Shown piece by piece: positions 10,062 through 31,335 of a stretch of 37,152 nucleotides of DNA. The translations under genes and the position numbers were made by a program. Under the pieces are notes generated by a model, which saw nothing but the letters and a program-made list of their open reading frames with translations, was not told where the DNA came from and did no database searches. The DNA is from a virus, in the IMG/VR virus record IMGVR_UViG_3300043788_000063. One strand, 5' to 3'. Position 1 is the first letter of the stretch. Every line of letters starts with the position of its first letter.

Positions 10062-10583
10062 ATGGATCAAGCATTTGAGACGACCAACATCCACACGCTG
10101 TACATCAAGCGGTACCACGCCAAGCAAGTCGCGATGGGTCTCTGTAGGAGTTGTCCACGACCGCTGGCTCCCGGCAGCAAGCAACTCTGCACGATTCATT
10201 TAGAGGCACAGCGCAAGAGGTCTGAAGCTAAGAACTTGGCAGAGGGAGCCGTGACCCTAAGCATGAGGAAAGCGGTTAGGGAAGCAGCGATGACGGTTTT
10301 CCGGCAAAGTCCCAAGGCTCCCTTGGAGACTGTGAGCAAGCTAGTCGGTCTCAAGAAGTCCACAATGTACCAAATAAGAGCGGATGCCTTGGGACAGCCC
10401 CCGGCGAAGATCGTGCGTCAAAAAGTACTGGGATTGCTCCGCTCAAACGCGGACATGACGTTTAGCGAGATCGCCGAGGAGACGGGAATTACCGAGGCTA
10501 CCGTGTTTCGTCTTGCTAAGAAATTCAAGTTTCCTACTCGTGTCAGAAAGCCGTATAATCTGAAGTCGGCAGTAAATGTCTGA
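10062..10583 (+). CDS. DNA-binding protein with N-terminal Zn-ribbon and C-terminal helix-turn-helix
   Basis: RBS GAGGAG upstream. The C-terminus MTFSEIAEETGITEATVFRLAKKF is a typical HTH. CRSCP...C..H occurs near the N-terminus. Confidence 0.5.
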   Translation: MDQAFETTNIHTLYIKRYHAKQVAMGLCRSCPRPLAPGSKQLCTIHLEAQRKRSEAKNLAEGAVTLSMRKAVREAAMTVFRQSPKAPLETVSKLVGLKKSTMYQIRADALGQPPAKIVRQKVLGLLRSNADMTFSEIAEETGITEATVFRLAKKFKFPTRVRKPYNLKSAVNV

Positions 10584-11914: not shown

Positions 11915-11989
11915 AGGGGAGTCATTCAACGGCTAGGATGGCGGTCTCCAAAACCGCTCATGGGGGTTCGAATCCCTCCTCCCCTGCCA
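11915..11989 (+). tRNA. tRNA-Trp (anticodon CCA), CCA end encoded
   Basis: Hand-folded cloverleaf: acceptor AGGGGAG/CTCCCCT, anticodon stem GCGGT/ACCGC, loop CTCCAAA, T-arm GGGGG-TTCGAAT-CCCTC. Confidence 0.8.
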
Positions 11990-12014
11990 AATTTTGCAGT
12001 AACGAAGGGAATTT

Positions 12015-12645
12015 ATGGAACTGAAACTAGAAGCTTCTCAAGCGCGAGGGACCCGCATCCTGCGGGGACAGACGGCTGCCCGGAGACGTCTTCATCTCGT
12101 CTAACCTCGCATTGAGAGCGACGGAAGCCGGGTACGAGGAAATCGTCCTTCCGTCGCTTGAGCCAGCCGCGATCTACGCTGAGAAGGCTGGTAATGAAGT
12201 TCTGGGGCAGATGTACACGTTCCCAGACAAGAAAGGCAGGCAGCTTTGCCTGCGACCGGAAGGGACGGCGACTTGCCAGATACTCGCCGACACGGTGCTG
12301 AAGTCGGAGCGGGACGTGAAGCTCTGGTATCTGGCGACCTGCTGGCGCTACGAGCGGCCGCAGGCGGGGCGTTACCGGGAATTCTTGCAGTTCGGCGTTG
12401 AGGTCTTGAACCCACGCCAAGATATGCGGGACGAACTGGTGGAGTTGGCGACGAGCATGGTCGGGATGTTCACCGACAAGTTTGAAGTCAGCAAAGCAGT
12501 GAAGCGTGGGCTGGCGTACTACGTTGAGGACGGCTTTGAGATAAGTTGCCCGGCGTTGGGAGCACAGAAGCAAGTCTGCGGCGGCGGGTCGTACAAGCAG
12601 GGATGCGGTTTCGCATTCGGCGTAGATCGGCTGATGTTGGTTTAA
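12015..12645 (+). CDS. Minimal histidyl-tRNA synthetase-like catalytic core (~210 aa). It is interrupted by a +1 frame change near 12100-12112 and lacks the insertion and anticodon-binding domains.
   Basis: Frame 0 (ATG 12015) encodes MELKLEASQARGTRILRGQTAARRRLHLV*, which resembles the HisRS N-terminus.
Frame 1 (from 12031, TTG 12112) encodes ...AGYEEIVLP...QMYTFPDKKGRQLCLRPEGTA...LWYLATCWRYERPQAGRYREFLQFGVEVLN (class II motif 2 / HisRS motif).
This runs directly into KRGLAYYVEDGFEISCPALGAQKQVCGGGSYKQGCGFAFGVDRLML (HisRS GGGRYD plus motif 3 GFAxGxxRL). Confidence 0.7.
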
Positions 12646-12649
12646 CGAT

Positions 12650-12727
12650 GGTGGCGGTCGTCTAGAGGCTTAGGACCCCTGACTGTGACTCAGGTGATCG
12701 TGGGTTCGAATCCCATCCGCCACCCCA
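12650..12727 (+). tRNA. tRNA-His (anticodon GTG) with genomically encoded G-1 and C73
   Basis: G(-1)+GTGGCGG acceptor pairs with CCGCCAC, followed by C and CCA. Anticodon arm CCTGA-CTGTGAC-TCAGG. T-arm GTGGG-TTCGAAT-CCCAT. Starts 5 nt after the HisRS-like stop. Confidence 0.85.
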
Positions 12728-12733
12728 AATTTC

Positions 12734-12811
12734 GTCCGTGTAGCTCAGTTGGATTAGAGCGCTTCCCTCCGAAGGAAGAGGTCGTGAGTTCGAGTCTCAC
12801 CATGGACACCA
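12734..12811 (+). tRNA. tRNA-Arg (anticodon CCG)
   Basis: Acceptor GTCCGTG/CATGGAC. Anticodon stem CTTCC/GGAAG with loop CTCCGAA. CCA encoded. Confidence 0.8.
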
Positions 12812-12816
12812 GAGTT

Positions 12817-12996
12817 ATGAGAGAGACGACTGAGTATCCGCCGTTCCAGATCAGGTGCTCCAAATGCAACAAGGAGCCGGGTCAGTGCTGTGGTAGGTGG
12901 GACGGGGCACCGTATGCGTGCATGGATCGTGTGAAAGCTGCGGAAGAGATATTCGGGAAGTTCAGGTACAAGGACGGCAAGTACGTGCGTGTGTAG
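12817..12996 (+). CDS. Possible small zinc-ribbon protein (59 aa) between tRNAs
   Basis: ATG 12817; CSKCNKEPGQCCGRWDGAPYAC. The 3' end overlaps the next tRNA by ~10 nt, so the call is weak. Confidence 0.25.
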   Translation: MRETTEYPPFQIRCSKCNKEPGQCCGRWDGAPYACMDRVKAAEEIFGKFRYKDGKYVRV

Positions 12997-13063
12997 CTCA
13001 GTTGGATAGAGCGCTACTCTGCGAAGGTAGAGGTCGGCAGTTCGATTCTGCCCATGCGCACCA
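12987..13063 (+). tRNA. tRNA-Arg (anticodon GCG)
   Basis: Acceptor GCGTGTG/CATGCGC (two G-U pairs). Anticodon stem CTACT/GGTAG with loop CTGCGAA. T-arm GGCAG-TTCGATT-CTGCC. CCA encoded. Confidence 0.7.
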
Positions 13064-13073
13064 AGTTTACAGA

Positions 13074-13151
13074 GCCGGGTTAGTCATTGGACATGACAGC
13101 ACGTCTTCGAAACGTGCATATTTACGGGTTCGAATCCCGTACCCGGCTCCA
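13074..13151 (+). tRNA. tRNA-Arg (anticodon TCG)
   Basis: Acceptor GCCGGGT/ACCCGGC. Anticodon stem (G)CACGT/ACGTG(C) with loop CTTCGAA. T-arm ACGGG-TTCGAAT-CCCGT. CCA encoded. Confidence 0.7.
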
Positions 13152-13236
13152 GAGTTTGGTCTGGCGCACGCTGGTGCCAGCGAAAGTGAAGGTTGCCGTA
13201 ATCAGTCGCCCTTCAACCGAGTGGTTTTGCAAGTAC

Positions 13237-13314
13237 GCGCCCGTAGCTCAGCGGAATAAGAGCACTTCGCTACGAACGAAGGGGTCGGGAGTTCGAATCT
13301 CTCCGGGCGCACCA
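13237..13314 (+). tRNA. tRNA-Arg (anticodon ACG)
   Basis: Acceptor GCGCCCG/CGGGCGC. Anticodon stem CTTCG/CGAAG with loop CTACGAA. CCA encoded. Confidence 0.8.
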
Positions 13315-13326
13315 GTTTTGTGCTGA

Positions 13327-13402
13327 TGAGGCGTGGTCCAATCGGTAGGACGCCGCACTGTTAATGCGGATGGTGAAGGTTCGAGTCCTTCCGCCTCAGC
13401 CA
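13327..13402 (+). tRNA. tRNA-Asn (anticodon GTT), copy 1
   Basis: Acceptor TGAGGCG/CGCCTCA, G73. Anticodon stem CCGCA/TGCGG with loop CTGTTAA. CCA encoded. Confidence 0.7.
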
Positions 13403-13419
13403 ATTTTGCAGTAACATGT

Positions 13420-13494
13420 TGGGGTGTGGCTCAATGGTACAGCAGGTGACTGTTACTCACCCATTTGCAGGTTCGAGTCCTGCTGCCCCAGCCA
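13420..13494 (+). tRNA. tRNA-Asn (anticodon GTT), divergent copy 2
   Basis: Acceptor TGGGGTG/TGCCCCA (two G-U pairs), G73. Perfect anticodon stem GGTGA/TCACC with loop CTGTTAC. T-arm GCAGG-TTCGAGT-CCTGC. Confidence 0.6.
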
Positions 13495-13510
13495 AGTTTA
13501 GGAGGATGCG

Positions 13511-13774
13511 TTGCGAGTAGATGCTCCAGAGATCGTCAGGGTTGAAGATCGGGCGGTGCTTGAGCCGCTCGCCCAGCGCGGTCTGGCGGCGCATGAGCGG
13601 CTGCGGACAGCACGGGCAGCCCTAGCCGAGGCTCGGCGGATTGAGTACGCCGCAGAGATAGAACTTGCTCAGGCTGAGCGTGAGTACGCCGCCGTGAACC
13701 GGGAGATTGTCGGTGCCGGATACCACGACACAGGACACGTCGTGGGCTATTTGAAGAGTTCAGTTCCTCGGTAG
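13511..13774 (+). CDS. Small helical (Ala/Glu/Arg-rich) protein, 87 aa, between tRNAs
   Basis: GGAGG (13501-13505) is 5 nt upstream of TTG 13511. The 3' end overlaps the next tRNA by a few nt. Confidence 0.4.
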   Translation: MRVDAPEIVRVEDRAVLEPLAQRGLAAHERLRTARAALAEARRIEYAAEIELAQAEREYAAVNREIVGAGYHDTGHVVGYLKSSVPR

Positions 13775-13839
13775 CTCAATGGTGGAGCAGACGGCTGTTA
13801 ACCGTAAGGTTGTGTGTTCGACTCACACCCGAGGAGCCA
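13765..13839 (+). tRNA. tRNA-Asn (anticodon GTT), canonical copy 3
   Basis: Acceptor TCCTCGG/CCGAGGA, G73, CCA. Closely resembles E. coli tRNA-Asn. Loop CTGTTAA. Confidence 0.8.
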
Positions 13840-13924
13840 AGTTTCAGAGTTTGAGCGACCAGATCGCAGACGGCAACTTCGTTCAATGGAGGGCGATGAT
13901 CCAAAGCGGCGGACGCTCAAAGAC

Positions 13925-14003
13925 GGGTACGTAGTGTTTAACGGATTAGCACAGCAGCCTCTTAAGCTGTCGAGTGTGGGTTCAAATCCCACCGTACCCA
14001 CCA
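13925..14003 (+). tRNA. tRNA-Lys (anticodon CTT), copy 1 (long D-loop)
   Basis: Acceptor GGGTACG/CGTACCC. Anticodon stem GCAGC/GCTGT with loop CTCTTAA. T-arm GTGGG-TTCAAAT-CCCAC. CCA encoded. Confidence 0.6.
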
Positions 14004-14027
14004 AATTTGTGGTATTGTAGGGTTTTC

Positions 14028-14103
14028 GGGCTGCTAGCTCAACTGGTAGAGCATTCGACTCTTAATCGACAGGTTCCGAGTTCAAGCCTCGGGCAGCCCA
14101 CCA
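14028..14103 (+). tRNA. tRNA-Lys (anticodon CTT), copy 2
   Basis: Acceptor GGGCTGC/GCAGCCC. Anticodon loop CTCTTAA. T-arm CCGAG-TTCAAGC-CTCGG. CCA encoded. Confidence 0.75.
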
Positions 14104-14117
14104 AGTTTTTAGAGTAT

Positions 14118-14141
14118 TAGGGTTTAGCTTCCTAAGCCCTA
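14118..14141 (+). promoter_or_regulatory. 10-bp hairpin between tRNA-Lys and the HNH gene RBS
   Basis: TAGGGTTTAG-CTTC-CTAAGCCCTA (one G-U pair), directly upstream of GGAGG (14146-14150). Confidence 0.35.
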
Positions 14142-14157
14142 GATAGGAGGACAGGAC

Positions 14158-14703
14158 ATGCCTGACGTACTGGTACTGGATTCAAACTACCGTCCCATCG
14201 GCTTCAAGTCGTGGCAGGACGCTGTGAAGAATGTGTTTGAGGATCGCGCTATCGTCATCAAGGAAGACGAGAGCGGCGCGAAGCTTCACTCCCCGTCCTT
14301 TGAGATGGGCATGCCCCGTGTCATCCGTGTGCGTAACGCATGGGTGAAGCGCCGGAAGACTTCTGTCCCGTTCAGTCGCCGGAACATCTACATCCGCGAC
14401 AGCGGTGAGTGCCAGTACTGCGGCAAGCACCTCAAGACGGACGAGTACACGCTTGACCACGTGGTTCCGCGCTCGCAGGGCGGAATCTCAAGCTGGGCTA
14501 ACCTTGTCCTGTGCTGCGTGCGCTGCAACAAGCACAAGGCCGGACAGACACCGCAGCAGGCTCACATGCCGCTTCTGAGCAAGCCTGTTACACCGAAGGT
14601 TGATGATCCGAAGTACAACTTCAAACTCCACATTAGGAAGCTTCGGCCGGAGTGGAAAGAGTGGGCCGACTGGTTGTACTGGAACATTGAAATAGACGAG
14701 TAG
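14158..14703 (+). CDS. HNH endonuclease (181 aa) embedded in the tRNA array
   Basis: CQYCGKHLKTDEYTLDHVVPRSQGGISSWANLVLCCVRCNKHK is a canonical HNH motif. RBS GGAGG upstream. Confidence 0.75.
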   Translation: MPDVLVLDSNYRPIGFKSWQDAVKNVFEDRAIVIKEDESGAKLHSPSFEMGMPRVIRVRNAWVKRRKTSVPFSRRNIYIRDSGECQYCGKHLKTDEYTLDHVVPRSQGGISSWANLVLCCVRCNKHKAGQTPQQAHMPLLSKPVTPKVDDPKYNFKLHIRKLRPEWKEWADWLYWNIEIDE

Positions 14704-14711
14704 GTTAAAGA

Positions 14712-14733
14712 CCCGGAGGAGTAATCCTCCGGG
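14712..14733 (+). terminator. Terminator-like hairpin (9-bp stem, GTAA loop, weak U-tract)
   Basis: CCCGGAGGA-GTAA-TCCTCCGGG followed by CAAAATTTCT. Confidence 0.4.
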
Positions 14734-14743
14734 CAAAATTTCT

Positions 14744-14820
14744 GGCCCCGTAGTTCAGTGGAATAGAACGCAGGTTTCCTAAACCTGATGTCGCAGGTTC
14801 GAGTCCTGCCGGGGTCACCA
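14744..14820 (+). tRNA. tRNA-Arg (anticodon CCT)
   Basis: Acceptor GGCCCCG/CGGGGTC. Anticodon stem CAGGT/ACCTG with loop TTCCTAA. CCA encoded. Confidence 0.75.
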
Positions 14821-14827
14821 AGTTTGA

Positions 14828-14874
14828 GTTGCACGAAAATGTGCAACAAGCAGGAATTGCACGAAAGTGTGCAA
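14828..14874 (+). repeat. Two tandem near-identical palindromes, TTGCAC-N6-GTGCAA
   Basis: GTTGCACGAAAATGTGCAAC (14828-14847) and TTGCACGAAAGTGTGCAA (14857-14874), with centres ~30 bp apart. Confidence 0.6.
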
Positions 14875-14878
14875 CTGT

Positions 14879-14952
14879 TGGGAGATCGTCCAATGGTAGG
14901 ACACGCGCCTCTGGAGCGTGGAATCTAGGTTCGAGTCCTAGTCTCCCAGCCA
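14879..14952 (+). tRNA. tRNA-Gln (anticodon CTG)
   Basis: U1-A72 acceptor TGGGAGA/TCTCCCA, G73. Anticodon stem CGCGC/GCGTG with loop CTCTGGA. CCA encoded. Confidence 0.7.
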
Positions 14953-14957
14953 AATTT

Positions 14958-15113
14958 ATGACGATGCTTGAAGCATATTTTGATGAATTGCTCGCCCGGA
15001 TGCAGACACCAGAGTGGCGTGCGGCTGCCCAGCGGGCATTTGACGCAACGCCCGAAGAAATTGGCAAAGCGGCAGTGGAACATGCTGGACAAAACCGTGA
15101 AAGTGCGGTATAA
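14958..15113 (+). CDS. Possible small protein (51 aa)
   Basis: ATG 14958 immediately after the tRNA-Gln 3' end. Overlaps the internal promoter. Confidence 0.3.
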   Translation: MTMLEAYFDELLARMQTPEWRAAAQRAFDATPEEIGKAAVEHAGQNRESAV

Positions 15114-15114
15114 T
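15086..15114 (+). promoter_or_regulatory. Sigma70-like promoter TGGACA-N17-TATAAT inside the tRNA array
   Basis: Exact hexamers and spacing. ATG 15124 lies 10 nt downstream of the -10. Confidence 0.5.
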
Positions 15115-15123
15115 GGTCACAAG

Positions 15124-15297
15124 ATGAACTCCACGCTGAAGACGATCCTGAAGGTCACGGCGGCGGCGATTGTGCCAGGTGCGGCGATCTTTCTAGTCGG
15201 AGCATGGCTCCTGAAGGATCGTGAGAAGGAAGAATTCAGGAAGTACATTCGCAGTACCTACGGTGACGGAAGCAATTATGTGGACAATTACCGCTGA
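15124..15297 (+). CDS. Possible small membrane peptide (57 aa)
   Basis: Hydrophobic stretch KVTAAAIVPGAAIFLVGAWLL. A further overlapping 37-aa hydrophobic ORF lies at 15278..15391. Confidence 0.3.
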   Translation: MNSTLKTILKVTAAAIVPGAAIFLVGAWLLKDREKEEFRKYIRSTYGDGSNYVDNYR

Positions 15298-15405
15298 CGA
15301 TCTCATCAACTACGGCGCTCTAGCGACGATGCTGCTTGGCGTCTATGGGCTTTACCTCGCTTACACCTACCCCGCACGAAGAAAACGCTAACCACAATTT
15401 AATCT

Positions 15406-15488
15406 GGGCGTGTAATCGGGGGAGTCTTCTAAACTCTTAGCCGTAACTGGAATTGAAAATGCGAGTTCGACTCTCGCCACGCCCACCA
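15406..15488 (+). tRNA. Atypical 83-nt tRNA-like gene, possibly tRNA-Arg (anticodon TCT), with a degenerate D-arm and a 23-nt extra region
   Basis: Canonical acceptor GGGCGTG/CACGCCC, A73 and CCA. T-arm GCGAG-TTCGACT-CTCGC. The only 5-bp/7-nt stem-loop is GGAGT-CTTCTAA-ACTCT. Only 8 nt separate the acceptor from the anticodon stem. Confidence 0.35.
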
Positions 15489-15497
15489 ACCTTTTTG

Positions 15498-15573
15498 GGA
15501 GCGTAGCTCAATCCGGCAGAGCACTCGCCTTTTAAGCGAAACGTTGTGGGTTCAACTCCCACCGCTCCCACCA
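15498..15573 (+). tRNA. tRNA-Lys (anticodon TTT), copy 1
   Basis: Acceptor GGGAGCG/CGCTCCC. Anticodon loop CTTTTAA. T-arm GTGGG-TTCAACT-CCCAC. CCA encoded. Confidence 0.8.
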
Positions 15574-15578
15574 AATTT

Positions 15579-15655
15579 TGGGTCGTTACGTCAACTGGTA
15601 GACTACTCGCCTTTTAAGCGATGGAATCTCGGTTCAAATCCGAGGCGACCCACCA
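15579..15655 (+). tRNA. tRNA-Lys (anticodon TTT), copy 2
   Basis: Acceptor GGGTCGT/GCGACCC. Anticodon loop CTTTTAA. T-arm CTCGG-TTCAAAT-CCGAG. CCA encoded. Confidence 0.75.
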
Positions 15656-15664
15656 AACTCTTCC

Positions 15665-15931
15665 CTAAACCTCAATGCAGATACCCCAAATGCCGGAGTG
15701 TTCTTCAAAGCAATCCTTACAGTCACAGCACCTAAATGCCGTCATTTCGTCGGCGTTGATGTACTTGAATGGGCCTTTGCTTATGTGCCACCCACGCTTC
15801 CGCCCGCAGACCTCGCACGTGTAGAGTCCACGCTTAAGCCCCCGCCTCAGCTTCTCTTCTTGGTCAAGTTCCCTGACCTCACGGGCGATTATGCGGTTCA
15901 ACGCTTGCAGTTTTTTGGGTAGGTTTTTCAT
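15665..15931 (-). CDS. Small HNH-like zinc-finger protein (88 aa), distal gene of the minus-strand cassette
   Basis: CEVCGRKRGWHISKGPFKYINADEMTAFRCCDCKDCFEEH fits a CxxC..H..N..CxxC..H pattern. The ATGA overlap (15928-15931) couples it to the upstream gene. Confidence 0.45.
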   Translation of the reverse strand: MKNLPKKLQALNRIIAREVRELDQEEKLRRGLKRGLYTCEVCGRKRGWHISKGPFKYINADEMTAFRCCDCKDCFEEHSGIWGICIEV

Positions 15932-16203
15932 TCCAGACCTCCAATGTTCAGGTCCTTCAGGAACTTCTTATCCGCCTCAGTCACCTTCGGAGGATCATTG
16001 AACACCCAGCGGTTCGGGGACACTTCCACTTTCATGTCCGAAGTCGCGACCAGTGTTTTGTCGCAGGCTTCAATCAGAAGAAACATGGTCACGGCATCAA
16101 GCATCTTTGACAAATGCTTAGCGCTTACAGGTATGAAGGTTTCGCTATGGAGCTTGCCCTCGGTCTCATCGCCTTCTTGTGCAACTTTAATGGTGATTTT
16201 CAT
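15928..16203 (-). CDS. Hypothetical protein (91 aa), first gene of the minus-strand cassette
   Basis: GGAGG is 7 nt upstream of the ATG on the minus strand. Confidence 0.5.
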   Translation of the reverse strand: MKITIKVAQEGDETEGKLHSETFIPVSAKHLSKMLDAVTMFLLIEACDKTLVATSDMKVEVSPNRWVFNDPPKVTEADKKFLKDLNIGGLE

Positions 16204-16308
16204 TTTGTGACCTCCCAGTCACCGCATCGCCTTGGATGGCATCCACCGTGGCCTCTCGGCTCGGTTGGCGAACCCGCGCTTGGCGGATTCCTTCTTGATG
16301 CTTTGTAT

Positions 16309-17443: not shown

Positions 17444-17474
17444 ATATCTTCCCGATGTAGTGCATACTTGGGTC

Positions 17475-18761
17475 ATGAAGAAAGAGATGACCCTCCTCGG
17501 TCTGATCGCCGCCACGTACTTCATGGTGTCGGGCGGGCCTTACGGACTTGAAGACCTCATAGCTGAAACTGGCTACGGGCTGGGCATCCTCATCCTGATC
17601 CTCGTGCCCGTTCTCTGGGCGATGCCGACAGCGCTGATGGTCGGTGAGCTTGCTTCTGCAATCCCCGACAACGGCGGTTTTTACGTCTGGGTCAAGCGTG
17701 GGCTAGGAAGGTTCTGGGGATTTCAAGAGGCTTGGCAAACGCTCGCCTCGTCCGTGTTTGACATGGGCTTGTACCCCCTCCTTTTTGTCAGCTACCTCGG
17801 CACCCTAGCCCCCAATCTAATCGCGGGATGGCACGGTCCAGCCATCGGTACCGCCCTCGTCGCAGCCTGCCTCGGATGGAATATGAGAGGCGCAAAGGCT
17901 GTGGGTGATGGTTCGGTAGGCTTCGGGGCGCTGATGGTCTCTCCGTTCGCCGTACTCGCAGCAATGGGCATCTGGCACGCCCATCGTGATGCCGTGACGA
18001 TAGCGGCACAGCATCACCCGCACCCGGCGCTGGTCGCCGGGATTTTGGTCGCCATGTGGAACTACATGGGGTGGGATAATGCCAGCACCATTGCTACCGA
18101 AGTTGAGAACCCCCGCCGCACATACCCCCTCGCCATGTTCTGGACGATGGTCGCCATCGTCGCTACCTACATCATCCCTGTCGTGGCGGCATGGCGCTTT
18201 GGCATCCCGCTGTCCGCATGGTCAACCGGAAGCTGGGCGACAATCGGTGGAGCCATCGCAGGCCCGCTGATTCGTGACGCGATCGTCGTCGGCGGCATGA
18301 TCTCGGCCGCGGGACAACTCAACTCCCTGATGATGAGCTACTCCCGCCTGCCGGGCGCACTGGCTGAGGACGGCTTCCTGCCGAAAGTTTTCACGAAGGT
18401 CAACAAGGCTGCCGTGCCGATGATCGCGCTCTTCGCCTTGAGCACCGTTTGGCTGGCTGCCATTGGGCTGAACTTTGACAGGCTAGTCATGCTGGACATC
18501 CTGCTTGCCGGGAGCAGCATCGTGTTGGAGTTCGTCGCACTGGCTGTCCTCCGCTGGAAAGAACCTGATCTTCTGCGTCCGTTTGCTGTGCCTGGTGGCA
18601 AAGTCGGGGTGATCATCTGCGGCATTCTGCCCACGGCGTTGCTGATCGGCGCTGCTATTTTCTGCGATCATGCTGGGGTTGCAATCGGCGTCGGCACGAT
18701 CCTCGCCGGGTTCGTGACTTACTGGGGCGTAAGGACATACGGCCGCATCCACTGTAAGTAG
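17475..18761 (+). CDS. APC-superfamily amino-acid/polyamine permease-like transporter (~429 aa, multi-TM)
   Basis: The N-terminus LIAATYFMVSGGPYGLEDLIAETGYG and the 12-TM hydrophobic profile are typical of APC permeases. The start could alternatively be GTG 17460. Confidence 0.6.
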   Translation: MKKEMTLLGLIAATYFMVSGGPYGLEDLIAETGYGLGILILILVPVLWAMPTALMVGELASAIPDNGGFYVWVKRGLGRFWGFQEAWQTLASSVFDMGLYPLLFVSYLGTLAPNLIAGWHGPAIGTALVAACLGWNMRGAKAVGDGSVGFGALMVSPFAVLAAMGIWHAHRDAVTIAAQHHPHPALVAGILVAMWNYMGWDNASTIATEVENPRRTYPLAMFWTMVAIVATYIIPVVAAWRFGIPLSAWSTGSWATIGGAIAGPLIRDAIVVGGMISAAGQLNSLMMSYSRLPGALAEDGFLPKVFTKVNKAAVPMIALFALSTVWLAAIGLNFDRLVMLDILLAGSSIVLEFVALAVLRWKEPDLLRPFAVPGGKVGVIICGILPTALLIGAAIFCDHAGVAIGVGTILAGFVTYWGVRTYGRIHCK

Positions 18762-18805
18762 TCATTCTCCCCAAGTCGGCTGTATACTATAGGTCTGGAG
18801 GACGT

Positions 18806-20335
18806 GTGACTGCGATCAACCAAAAAGTGAATCATTGGCAACACGGCTCTGGAATTGTGGTTGAGATTTTAGAAGAGTGCGTGAGGGTGGCGTTTGAGTC
18901 AGGGCAAATCAGAAATTTAGCGGAGGACAATCTGACTGACGAAAACGACGATCCCTTGGAGCCACAGCTACGTGTTAACGTAACCACCGTTCCGAAGCCG
19001 ATTCTACCAGCCGTCCCCGAGGGATTTGTTCCCATAGGTCTGCCCGCCCCCGCATCCACCGTCATTCCCGTGGTTCTCAACGGCGACCGCATATCTCTCC
19101 TCGGCAATTGTTTGGAGGTTATGAAAGGTATCCCATCCAAGTCCATCGCATTCATGTTCGTTGGACTCCCCTACGGAGCTACTGAAATGGAGTGGGACAA
19201 GCCGTTCAAGCAAAGAAAATATCTGCGTGCATGGCTCGTGGAGTTTTGGGCGGAAGTCAGACGCATAATGATGGACGGAGGCGTCGTCTGCTGCCAAGCG
19301 GCTGAAACGCTGATCTACGAGAAGAATCGTCCTGTCGGAACTTTCGCCACGGAGTTGAAGAACTCCAATTCGGACAGCTACCTGTACTCCTACATTTGGG
19401 TCAAACAGCAGCCCTCTGACTGGCATGCGGTCAAAAAAGGTGTGCTTCTCCGCCCCCGGCGCAAACACGAAGTGGTCGTCACTTTCTGCATAGGCAGCCG
19501 CACCCCGAGAGTTTTCAATGAGTGGAAGTCAAAGACCAACCCCGTCTCTGGGTATGACAGCGAGGGTCGTGCAACGAATGGAGTCATGTGGGGGCCAAAC
19601 ACAAACAGCAACCACAAAGACAACCCGCTCGGTCTCCGCTACCTTGAAGACGTAATTTACATGTCAACCGACCGATCAACTCGGGATGAAGAAGCCCGAA
19701 GTGAGGAGGGTCTTGAGGAGAAAGCTGACACGCCAAATCCGATAGCGCTGCCTTGGCTGTTTGCAAAAATATACTCCAACGAAAACGAGTGGTGCCTAGA
19801 CCCGACGATGGGAACTGGAACCAGTGTCCTCGCCTTTATCCACGCCGGGCGCAAGGGCATGGGAATAGAGCTTGAAAAGGACACCTTTGAAGGCGCTGAT
19901 CGGGCTATTGCTTCTGCCACGTTTGGTGACGACCGCATAGAACAAGCAGAAGCCTTGCGGACGAATAACTTCTCCGAACCCGCAGCATGGGTGGAGTGCG
20001 CCGTGGAACTGGACCGCCTTCAGACGGAGTTCGACAACCGCATCTTGGTCTTCGTGAAGAGACATTCCGATAAGGGAGAGGGAATAACCAGCACGTACTT
20101 GGCTAAGGAAACAGTCTCCGATGGTCATCAAGTTCGGGGTTGCCTCGCACGCCTAAAAAACGCCGGACTGGTCGTAAGTGTCAAGCAAGAGAAGGGCGCA
20201 AATCTTTGGTATGAGAAGGGCGCAGCGACGACTCTGGCTGGACTACTGTCCGCCCTCTTCAACATTGAGGACGAGGTTGAAACCGAGGCCGTTGTTGAAG
20301 AAACCAAAGCGGATGCGGCCGCTGCCGGAGACTAA
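18806..20335 (+). CDS. DNA methyltransferase (N6-adenine or N4-cytosine; motif IV precedes motif I) with a ~90-aa N-terminal extension
   Basis: LLGNCLEVMKGIPSKSIAFMFVGLPYG matches the motif IV (DPPY-like) region. CLDPTMGTGTSVLAFIHAGRKGMGIELEKDTF matches motif I FxGxG. The start codon is uncertain (GTG 18806). Confidence 0.7.
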   Translation: MTAINQKVNHWQHGSGIVVEILEECVRVAFESGQIRNLAEDNLTDENDDPLEPQLRVNVTTVPKPILPAVPEGFVPIGLPAPASTVIPVVLNGDRISLLGNCLEVMKGIPSKSIAFMFVGLPYGATEMEWDKPFKQRKYLRAWLVEFWAEVRRIMMDGGVVCCQAAETLIYEKNRPVGTFATELKNSNSDSYLYSYIWVKQQPSDWHAVKKGVLLRPRRKHEVVVTFCIGSRTPRVFNEWKSKTNPVSGYDSEGRATNGVMWGPNTNSNHKDNPLGLRYLEDVIYMSTDRSTRDEEARSEEGLEEKADTPNPIALPWLFAKIYSNENEWCLDPTMGTGTSVLAFIHAGRKGMGIELEKDTFEGADRAIASATFGDDRIEQAEALRTNNFSEPAAWVECAVELDRLQTEFDNRILVFVKRHSDKGEGITSTYLAKETVSDGHQVRGCLARLKNAGLVVSVKQEKGANLWYEKGAATTLAGLLSALFNIEDEVETEAVVEETKADAAAAGD

Positions 20336-21949: not shown

Positions 21950-22011
21950 GCCAGAAATACCACGACTTTTCTTCCACTACCGGGTACTATACTTAGAGGA
22001 GTATCCCCTAT

Positions 22012-31253: not shown

Positions 31254-31282
31254 TCTGCTGATCAGTAAAGCTTTATAACAAC

Positions 31283-31312
31283 TGGACAATTTCATAGCCT
31301 TCGCTGTATACT
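31283..31312 (+). promoter_or_regulatory. Conserved promoter TGGACA-N18-TATACT (copy A), upstream of the rIIA-like gene
   Basis: AACTGGACAATTTCATAGCCTTCGCTGTATACTACTGG. Near-identical to copy B at 35188. Confidence 0.55.
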
Positions 31313-31335
31313 ACTGGTGCGAAGAAGGGAAGGCT

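Follow-up and report, generated by a model that had tools for sequence, protein, structure and literature searches.

A recurrent sigma-70-like promoter cassette in an uncultivated megaphage lineage and a predicted hairpin over the rIIA ribosome-binding site

Introduction

In a 37,152-nucleotide (nt) stretch of viral DNA (IMG/VR virus record IMGVR_UViG_3300043788_000063; the whole stretch is called the window below), a highly conserved cassette of ~45 nt stands before an rIIA-like gene and again before a Ku-like gene. Are these two cassettes copies of one promoter, which polymerase would read them, and why does their conservation reach beyond the -35 and -10 hexamers? A first-pass annotation, made from the DNA letters alone, had taken them for a phage-specific promoter class, possibly recognised with help from a phage factor. 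Our analysis points to a lineage-conserved class of strong sigma-70-type promoters in a phage of ~440-460 kb, with a hairpin over the ribosome-binding site (RBS) embedded in the rIIA copy, a reading to which we assign a probability of about 0.6. Coordinates are window positions on the plus strand unless another strand or contig is named.

Results

The cassette is a statistically exceptional feature of the window. We found that the motif AACTGGAC-N16-CTGTATACT precedes both the rIIA-like gene (31336-33633; 765 amino acids [aa]; phrog_612 RIIA, E = 1.5e-105) and the Ku-like gene (35239-36204; 321 aa; PF02735 Ku, E = 2.7e-27); the rIIB-like gene (33646-35022; phrog_609 RIIB, E = 1.8e-67) lies directly 3' of the rIIA-like gene. 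The full stretch 5' of the rIIA-like gene reads ATAACAACTGGACAATTTCATAGCCTTCGCTGTATACTACTGG, with the cassette copy ATAACAACTGGAC...TATACTACTGG at 31275-31317, and the stretch 5' of the Ku gene reads ATAAAACTGGACGTTTCAAGGCAGTTCGCTGTATACTAACACTGG, with its copy at 35181-35225. The pattern TGGAC-N16-19-TATACT occurs twice in the window, compared with 0.04 occurrences expected from shuffled sequences, so that the cassette common to the rIIA and Ku units, as first described, is confirmed. Likewise, the 14-mer TTCGCTGTATACTA is present in two exact copies and one copy with two mismatches (at 18776), a yield reached in 0 of 100 shuffles. The hexamer TATACT itself was counted five times in 74 kb (both strands), always on the plus strand and in four of the five cases directly 5' of a gene start.

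Further members were sought with a position weight matrix built from 29 instances in relatives, from which the window's own copies had been left out. The matrix scored 48.0 bits at Ku (35212), 42.6 bits at rIIA (31307) and 26.4 bits at a third site, 18783, before a methyltransferase gene; the next best site in the window reached -5.8 bits and the maximum in random sequence was 5.8 bits. The window thus holds three members of the class, before the methyltransferase, rIIA-rIIB and Ku, and relatives carry at least one more in DNA that lies past the 3' end of the window. The weaker third member (promoter 18759-18788, observed in the window) consists of TAGTCA, an 18-bp spacer and TG-TATACT, and includes the partial copy GTCGGCTGTATACTATAGG at 18775-18793.

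A fourth site proposed in the first-pass annotation, GGGTACTATACTTAGAGG at 21982-21999 before the gene of a secreted G/H-rich protein, was rejected as a member: it shares only TATACT (21988-21993) with the class, is absent among the top weight-matrix hits, and has its GAC at a different distance. This TATACT is conserved in relative L090 (at 1811) though outside the class, and the hairpin predicted there is weak (z = -1.4). Hence, of the additional copies first suggested, the partial one before the methyltransferase stands and the one before the G/H-rich gene does not. The positions originally given were exact for the Ku copy and for 21982-21999, off by one at the end of the rIIA copy, and off by two for the methyltransferase copy.

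The layout of the rIIA promoter is as follows. An upstream part (31257-31282), which is UP-element-like and may serve as a site for the polymerase alpha-subunit C-terminal domain or for an activator, comprises a GCTGAT box (31257-62) and the A/T-rich segment TTTATAACAAC (31272-82). The -35 element TGGACA (31283-31288) is followed by an 18-bp spacer (31289-31306), whose terminal TG abuts the -10 element TATACT (31307-31312). From standard -10 geometry, transcription would start ~7 nt past TATACT, at 31316-31320. In the Ku promoter, the upstream part (35160-35187; box AAGTTGTTGATT at 35160-71 and A/T-rich CATAAAAC) is kept in all relatives, and the core (35188-35217) has TGGACG at 35188-93, the same 18-bp spacer and TATACT at 35212-17; its predicted start (~35224) falls at the Shine-Dalgarno sequence GGAGGG (35224-29) of the gene, whose ATG is at 35239. 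Across the copies, the Shine-Dalgarno sequence begins 6-15 nt, and the start codon 21-23 nt, past TATACT, which replaces the earlier statement that the RBS follows after ~25 nt.

Two further observations were made with these elements. A sigma-70-like sequence with the same -35 variant, TGGACA-17 bp-TATAAT, lies at 15086-15114 in the tRNA region, ~380 nt upstream of tRNA-Lys (15497); the weight matrix misses it because its spacer is 17 bp. We also considered the palindrome GTATAC in the -10 region as a restriction or methylation target and dismissed it, as GTATAC is no rarer than composition-matched 6-bp palindromes.

The cassette is conserved at orthologous positions in a megaphage lineage. 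A near-identity DNA search against isolate phages gave no match to the window, and protein-level searches returned only distant relatives of rIIA and Ku. IMG/VR contained no rIIA relative and no match to a 33-nt form of the motif. Metagenome collections, in turn, yielded graded relatives, with rIIA identity from 92% down to ~45%, several of them on contigs of 436-458 kb. Since close matches are lacking among isolates and in IMG/VR and the relatives reside on contigs of this size, we assign the element to an uncultivated megaphage lineage. Twelve relatives are syntenic (rIIA 47-92% identical), and throughout them we observed the rIIA-rIIB-Ku block and, further downstream, a small gene beside a DnaJ-domain gene. 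One relative, L095 (contig Ga0374055_0000025), is on a contig of 894,233 bp, about twice the length of the other long contigs, perhaps because of concatemers in the assembly or because the element itself is far larger.

In every syntenic relative examined, the cassette precedes rIIA and precedes Ku. A third full copy in the relatives is found 5' of the small gene located ahead of the DnaJ-domain gene, ~7-8 kb past Ku and thus beyond the 3' end of the window. Each relative has 3-4 members in ~22 kb; every one lies on the coding strand, co-oriented with its gene and at a fixed distance from the gene start. The motif search beyond the original two copies therefore returned extra members both in the window and in relatives, and with cassettes at rIIA, Ku and a third gene in every syntenic relative the two copies are members of a recurrent promoter class, not chance look-alikes. 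More distant contigs with rIIA (identity 34% or less) had no class members. A scan of IMG/VR with the 14-mer gave 89 matches, which look like chance. IMGVR_UViG_3300043788_000040 (L041, L051; 170,563 bp) was the sole IMG/VR contig with two exact copies of TTCGCTGTATACTA, one of them within CTGGACA-N18-TATACT; no protein similarity was detected between the window and the fetched pieces of this contig.

Comparison of 23-31 instances from the three paralogous positions revealed which bases are held. More specifically, (A)ACTGGAC (29-31 instances), a following purine, TTT, and then GCTG-TATACT-a are almost invariant, and no instance departs from an 18-bp spacer. Around the fixed blocks AACTGGAC, TTT and GCTGTATACT, the intergenic DNA diverges. 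Upstream, the rIIA, Ku and DnaJ-upstream families have an A/T-rich (c)AyATAAC by TGGAC and a yTGAT box ~17-20 bp further up, giving the rough consensus yTGAT-box ... AyATAAC-TGGACr-TTTy-N10-gGCTG-TATACT-a. The spacer had previously been said to contain a fixed TTCGCTG; this does not hold, as the Ku copy of relatives reads TCGGCTG, GAAGGCTG or CAATCTG. The TTCGC shared by the two window copies is thus coincidental, because the Ku copies of relatives differ there. In the rIIA copy, CTTCGC sits in a stretch complementary to the rIIA leader.

The starts predicted for the Ku and DnaJ-upstream copies fall right at the border of GGAGGG, the Shine-Dalgarno sequence. The DnaJ-upstream ortholog of relative L093 (20009-20023) has lost its Shine-Dalgarno sequence and its ATG is 6 nt past TATACT; such a leaderless-looking variant fits an mRNA that begins at the predicted position.

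The rIIA promoter spacer is complementary to the rIIA RBS. We observed that AATTTCATAGCCTTC (31288-31302), which occupies most of the spacer, pairs with GAAGGCTATGAAATT (31329-31343) through 15 contiguous Watson-Crick pairs (-24.3 kcal/mol, z = -5.0), and that this stem is kept in a 171-nt context in both the minimum-energy and the centroid structures. The 3' strand runs from the 3' part of the Shine-Dalgarno sequence through the AUG to rIIA codons 2-3, and the loop holds the -10 element and the start site. The 5' strand is upstream of the predicted start, so it would be present only in read-through transcripts; in RNA that begins at the predicted start, the RBS surroundings are predicted to be essentially unstructured. 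Consistently, the calculated energy needed to open the rIIA RBS of the window is 18.9 kcal/mol in read-through RNA and 5.7 kcal/mol in promoter-started RNA. Mean values for read-through versus own-start RNA were 11.9 versus 4.2 kcal/mol at rIIA, 13.0 versus 5.2 kcal/mol at the DnaJ-upstream gene, and 6.0 versus 2.7 kcal/mol at Ku; the methyltransferase gave 14.1 versus 5.1 kcal/mol. The background, from other window genes in read-through geometry, is 7.5 ± 3.5 kcal/mol.

Among 54 gene starts of the window, the duplex between upstream segment and RBS was strongest at rIIA (-25.3 kcal/mol) and second strongest at the methyltransferase (-20.0 kcal/mol), relative to a background of -8.2 ± 4.2 kcal/mol. 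The predicted methyltransferase hairpin (18758-18813; -19.9 kcal/mol, z = -2.3) pairs the -35/spacer region with GGAGGA (18797-802), the GTG (18806) and the next codons. Over 13 relatives, the rIIA spacer-to-leader duplex averages -18.2 kcal/mol, as compared with -3 to -9 kcal/mol at Ku promoters and -8.1 kcal/mol for Ku spacers combined with rIIA leaders; in the window, the Ku spacer and leader (-8.2 kcal/mol, z = +0.7) do not pair. Cognate arm pairs also beat permuted partners (0/20,000 permutations). No Rfam family was matched at the promoters or in the rIIB-Ku spacer.

The Ku promoter differs from the other members in what precedes it. A conserved terminator-like element (35087-35155), with a stem formed by AGCCGGGAAG (35087-96) and CTTTCCGGCT (35136-45) and then the T-run TTCTTTTTGT, stands before the Ku promoter only; the other promoters of the class directly follow a co-directional gene without a terminator. 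A consensus fold of nine relatives keeps the stem at 35087-35145, with some compensatory changes, and on this folding model the element may well act as a terminator. The hairpin is thus absent only where a terminator-like element precedes the promoter, a pattern expected if the hairpin silences read-through transcripts. The rIIB-Ku spacer (35036-35155) as a whole has conserved structure, a AGATAGGGGC...GCCCCT hairpin followed by the long stem and T-run. In addition, the hexamer AGATAG occurs seven times in the window, four times intergenically just before genes or the spacer element (35036-35155; also 3979, 14141 and 36207). These features could reflect a second promoter-like motif and/or a ~110-nt small RNA.

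The extended motif also occurs in bacterial genomes. We searched the exact pattern AACTGGAC-NN-TT-N13-TGTATACT in one genome per species for 185,579 bacterial and archaeal species and obtained four matches, three of them in metagenome-assembled genomes (MAGs) of Anaerolineae. One of the three is 28 nt before a ferritin-like gene; another, on a 314-kb contig of an Anaerolineaceae MAG (L181 1662-1702, minus strand), is 7 nt before the ATG of an ABC-transporter ATPase gene; the last precedes a doubtful short reading frame. With their ATGs 6-7 nt after TATACT, the ATPase gene and the L093 ortholog both look leaderless. The Anaerolineae sites suggest a use of the extended motif in bacterial chromosomes too, which may offer a lead to the host; the fetched Anaerolineae DNA amounts to 24 kb, too little for a host promoter consensus.

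The elements of the cassette are those of a sigma-70 promoter. TATACT, invariant in nearly all instances, agrees with TATAAT at 5/6 positions, and TGGACA and TGGACG, 18 bp upstream, agree with TTGACA at 5/6 and 4/6. All three window sites reach 9-10/12 in a generic sigma-70 scan, which overall performs at chance level and lends no independent support. A search of the window and of the Pfam annotation of nine relatives (~22 kb each) turned up no gene for a sigma factor, MotA or an AsiA-like protein. Neither the window nor these ~22-kb loci showed a phage RNA polymerase gene, and the cassette lacks the MotA box, (a/t)(a/t)TGCTT(t/c)A centred at -30. A 173-aa protein (10062-10583) has an N-terminal Cys/His cluster (CRSCPRPLAPGSKQLCTIH) and a C-terminal helix-turn-helix (HTH) that matches HTH_IclR (E = 9e-8). 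We examined it as a candidate phage sigma factor and set it aside: the HTH is generic, the sigma-70 region 4 and ECF models remain below threshold, and there is no recognisable region 2.

The two proposals made at the outset on recognition are thus not upheld. The label phage-specific sits poorly with ordinary sigma-70 elements and with an extended motif that recurs in Anaerolineae MAGs, twice directly before ordinary genes; the need for a phage factor is likewise not borne out, given sigma-70-like elements and a window that holds no sigma, MotA or AsiA-like gene.

Other features of the window

The window has a G+C content of ~57% and carries nearly all genes on the plus strand; besides the rIIA-, rIIB- and Ku-like proteins, these encode N6/N4 and C5 methyltransferases, an amino-acid permease and a protein with major-vault-protein domains. 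The rIIB-like protein has at its C-terminus an HTH_3 match (residues 349-384) just under the Pfam threshold. The vault-domain protein (820 aa, 4019-6481) combines shoulder and repeat domains (PF11978, E = 3e-25; PF17795, E = 5e-10) and had no PHROG match. The permease (PF13520, E = 2.5e-40) is one of several host-like metabolic and translation genes (17460-18761 and the 6737-7558 region), and a batch scan of open reading frames (ORFs) also matched histidyl-tRNA-synthetase-like, RlaP and M24 peptidase families. A tRNA array (11915-15655) comprises 15 genes (5 Arg, 3 Asn, 4 Lys, and 1 each for Trp, His and Gln), with HNH-endonuclease-like ORFs scattered among them.

On the minus strand, Rfam reported a SAM-I/IV riboswitch match at 16191-16306 (43.4 bits against a gathering score of 41.1; E = 5.6e-4), just 5' of a minus-strand ORF (15928-16203; 91 aa, no Pfam match), whose start it overlaps. 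For a megaphage, a SAM riboswitch on the minority strand would be out of the ordinary. Finally, the 6-bp palindromes ACTAGT, AGATCT, ATCGAT, ATGCAT, CATATG and GATATC have zero copies in the whole window, where ~6.5 would be expected, which suggests avoidance of restriction sites.

Discussion

The motif, its conservation, the complementarity of the rIIA spacer to the rIIA leader and the contrast with Ku are direct observations, and we propose the following explanation for them. The host RNA polymerase with its primary sigma factor would most likely read these promoters directly, the cassettes being 'super-consensus' promoters in the manner of T4 early promoters. We favour direct recognition by the host holoenzyme on account of the sigma-70 parts, the apparent use of the motif in bacteria and the lack of any phage factor among the proteins searched. 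At rIIA, the promoter spacer would also supply the 5' strand of a hairpin, with the gene's Shine-Dalgarno sequence and AUG as the opposite strand. Transcripts that read through from the upstream gene would hold both strands and have their RBS locked, because no terminator lies between that gene and rIIA; transcripts begun at the promoter would lack the 5' strand and be translatable. Translation of rIIA would in this way be tied to the activity of its own promoter. By prediction, the methyltransferase and DnaJ-upstream promoters share this design, and the Ku promoter, which the putative terminator would insulate, does not. The extra conservation at rIIA is probably best explained, on these folding models, by such an embedded translational gate.

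Several results weigh against this explanation. Complementarity is kept in 12 of 13 relatives, the remaining one (L177) pairing hardly at all, and the pairing register differs among relatives. A covariation count in fixed register is weak (69.7% paired versus 66.9% in shuffles, with six double-change pairs), RNAalifold keeps only four pairs (-0.3 kcal/mol), and the mean unpaired probability from Shine-Dalgarno to AUG fails to tell rIIA and Ku apart. To some extent, the complementarity is simply that of a pyrimidine-rich spacer to a purine-rich leader. As for the promoter, its TG is at -14/-13, adjoining TATACT and not in the canonical TGn register (-15 to -13), and the second -35 position is never T in ~30 instances, which could indicate a non-standard reader. 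The Anaerolineae evidence is thin, since it consists of three sites only and the search pattern itself imposed the extended bases. Moreover, ~60 kb of a ~450-kb genome was examined, and where transcription starts, what recognises the promoter, when the genes are expressed and how translation responds are all deduced from sequence.

One alternative is that the class depends on a phage factor, either T4-middle-like or a phage sigma, that reads AACTGGACrTTT, leaving only the -10 host-style. On the -35 side, ~12 nt are conserved, more than a hexamer would need, and TTGACA appears in none of ~30 instances; the spacer is fixed at 18 bp; moreover, T4 rIIA and rIIB use MotA-dependent middle promoters (PMC2988021, Table 1), and promoter-embedded hairpins of T4 accompany promoters that require phage factors (PMC3014915). 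The HTH of the 173-aa protein (10062-10583) does align with sigma region 4, though below threshold, but this protein matches generic HTH models only and has its N-terminal Cys/His cluster in place of a recognisable sigma region 2. Nor did the window and the ~22 kb from each of nine relatives contain a sigma, MotA or AsiA-like protein, and the box is not a MotA box. Given also that the extended motif stands before ordinary genes in Anaerolineae MAGs and that -35/-10 matches of 9-10/12 suffice for sigma-70 recognition, we consider a phage-factor-dependent class possible but rather unlikely.

It is also conceivable that the promoter is real and the rIIA inverted repeat has another role, either as an RNase III-type processing or stability element or as an operator for a dimeric regulator. 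T7 has intergenic RNase III sites, and the rIIA stem with its inner pairs, near two helical turns, resembles them; the arms flank the -10 element symmetrically; and covariation in the alignment is weak. Against such roles, the 3' arm covers the Shine-Dalgarno sequence and AUG in relatives despite varying arm sequence and register, and this constant placement argues for RBS occlusion over a fixed protein site. Operators keep their sequence, whereas these arms vary, and the arm centres are ~41 bp apart, far for one dimer. That the Ku copy, which has no repeat, is preceded by a terminator-like element would be expected only if read-through RNA matters, so we regard these other roles as improbable. 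The notion that the cassette has no function, being a chance resemblance or a recent local duplication, could appeal to the presence of only two full copies in the 37-kb window and to the coincidental TTCGC; it is exceedingly hard to reconcile with a cassette that every relative keeps at the orthologous position amid diverging flanks, and with three paralogous families in which each copy lies on the coding strand and at a constant distance from a gene start.

Among known systems, the cassettes are close to strong sigma-70-dependent phage promoters, those of the T4 early type included. T4 early promoters carry a consensus beyond the hexamers (PMC2988021). T4 early promoters, T7 A1 and lambda PL share with the cassette -35/-10-like hexamers, a TG, an A/T-rich upstream region, a location among small single-strand genes, and an extended consensus common to many promoters of one phage (PMC2988021). 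The AyATAAC and yTGAT box kept in three cassette families may correspond to the A/T-rich UP region (-40 to -60) of the T4 early type. The cassette differs in its TGGACr -35 element, its fixed 18-bp spacer and a TG that abuts the hexamer in place of TGn, and its phage probably has a host other than an enterobacterium. T4 middle promoters likewise combine a host-type -10 with a phage-wide box on the -35 side and control rII genes, but here the box AACTGGAC is at the normal -35 position and no MotA/AsiA homologue is seen in the window. Unlike promoters of phage sigma factors or phage RNA polymerases, the cassette motif is sigma-70-like, and the window offers only the generic HTH protein.

A counterpart to the predicted gate is found in T4, where genes e, soc, 49 and I-TevI have RBS-sequestering hairpins with a promoter in the 5' strand (PMC3014915, section 29). 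The promoters embedded there are late ones (TATAAATA, gp55-dependent), and the measured effect is ~100-fold (PMC3014915). In these genes and in Aeh1 mobE, as at rIIA here, the Shine-Dalgarno sequence and/or AUG is paired with a segment that is upstream of an internal start and overlaps a promoter; in both cases, long transcripts are predicted to be silent and promoter-proximal ones translatable. The differences are that the embedded promoter is sigma-70-like, that the device is predicted at rIIA, a methyltransferase gene and the small neighbour of a DnaJ-domain gene, and that the pairing is a prediction whose register drifts between relatives. The promoter class and the hairpin gate are new instances of kinds already known, and current understanding is not overturned.

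A broader picture can be sketched, one that we hold to be unlikely as it stands: a soil and peat megaphage lineage infecting Chloroflexota (Anaerolineae) would run a dedicated transcription programme, in which a phage-modified polymerase or a phage factor reads AACTGGACrTTT and the promoter-in-hairpin module is used genome-wide, so that whether an mRNA is translated would hinge on the promoter it came from. If true, this would provide the first regulatory grammar together with a host assignment for phages of ~450 kb. At the level of the cassette itself, the class is the first defined promoter motif for an uncultivated ~450-kb megaphage lineage, and can serve to mark out transcription units and to forecast mRNAs with short leaders or none. 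A host proposal may also profit from it, as the exact motif occurs almost only in Anaerolineae genomes. Lastly, the T4 promoter-in-hairpin device appears to recur far outside the T4 group, at several genes of one genome.

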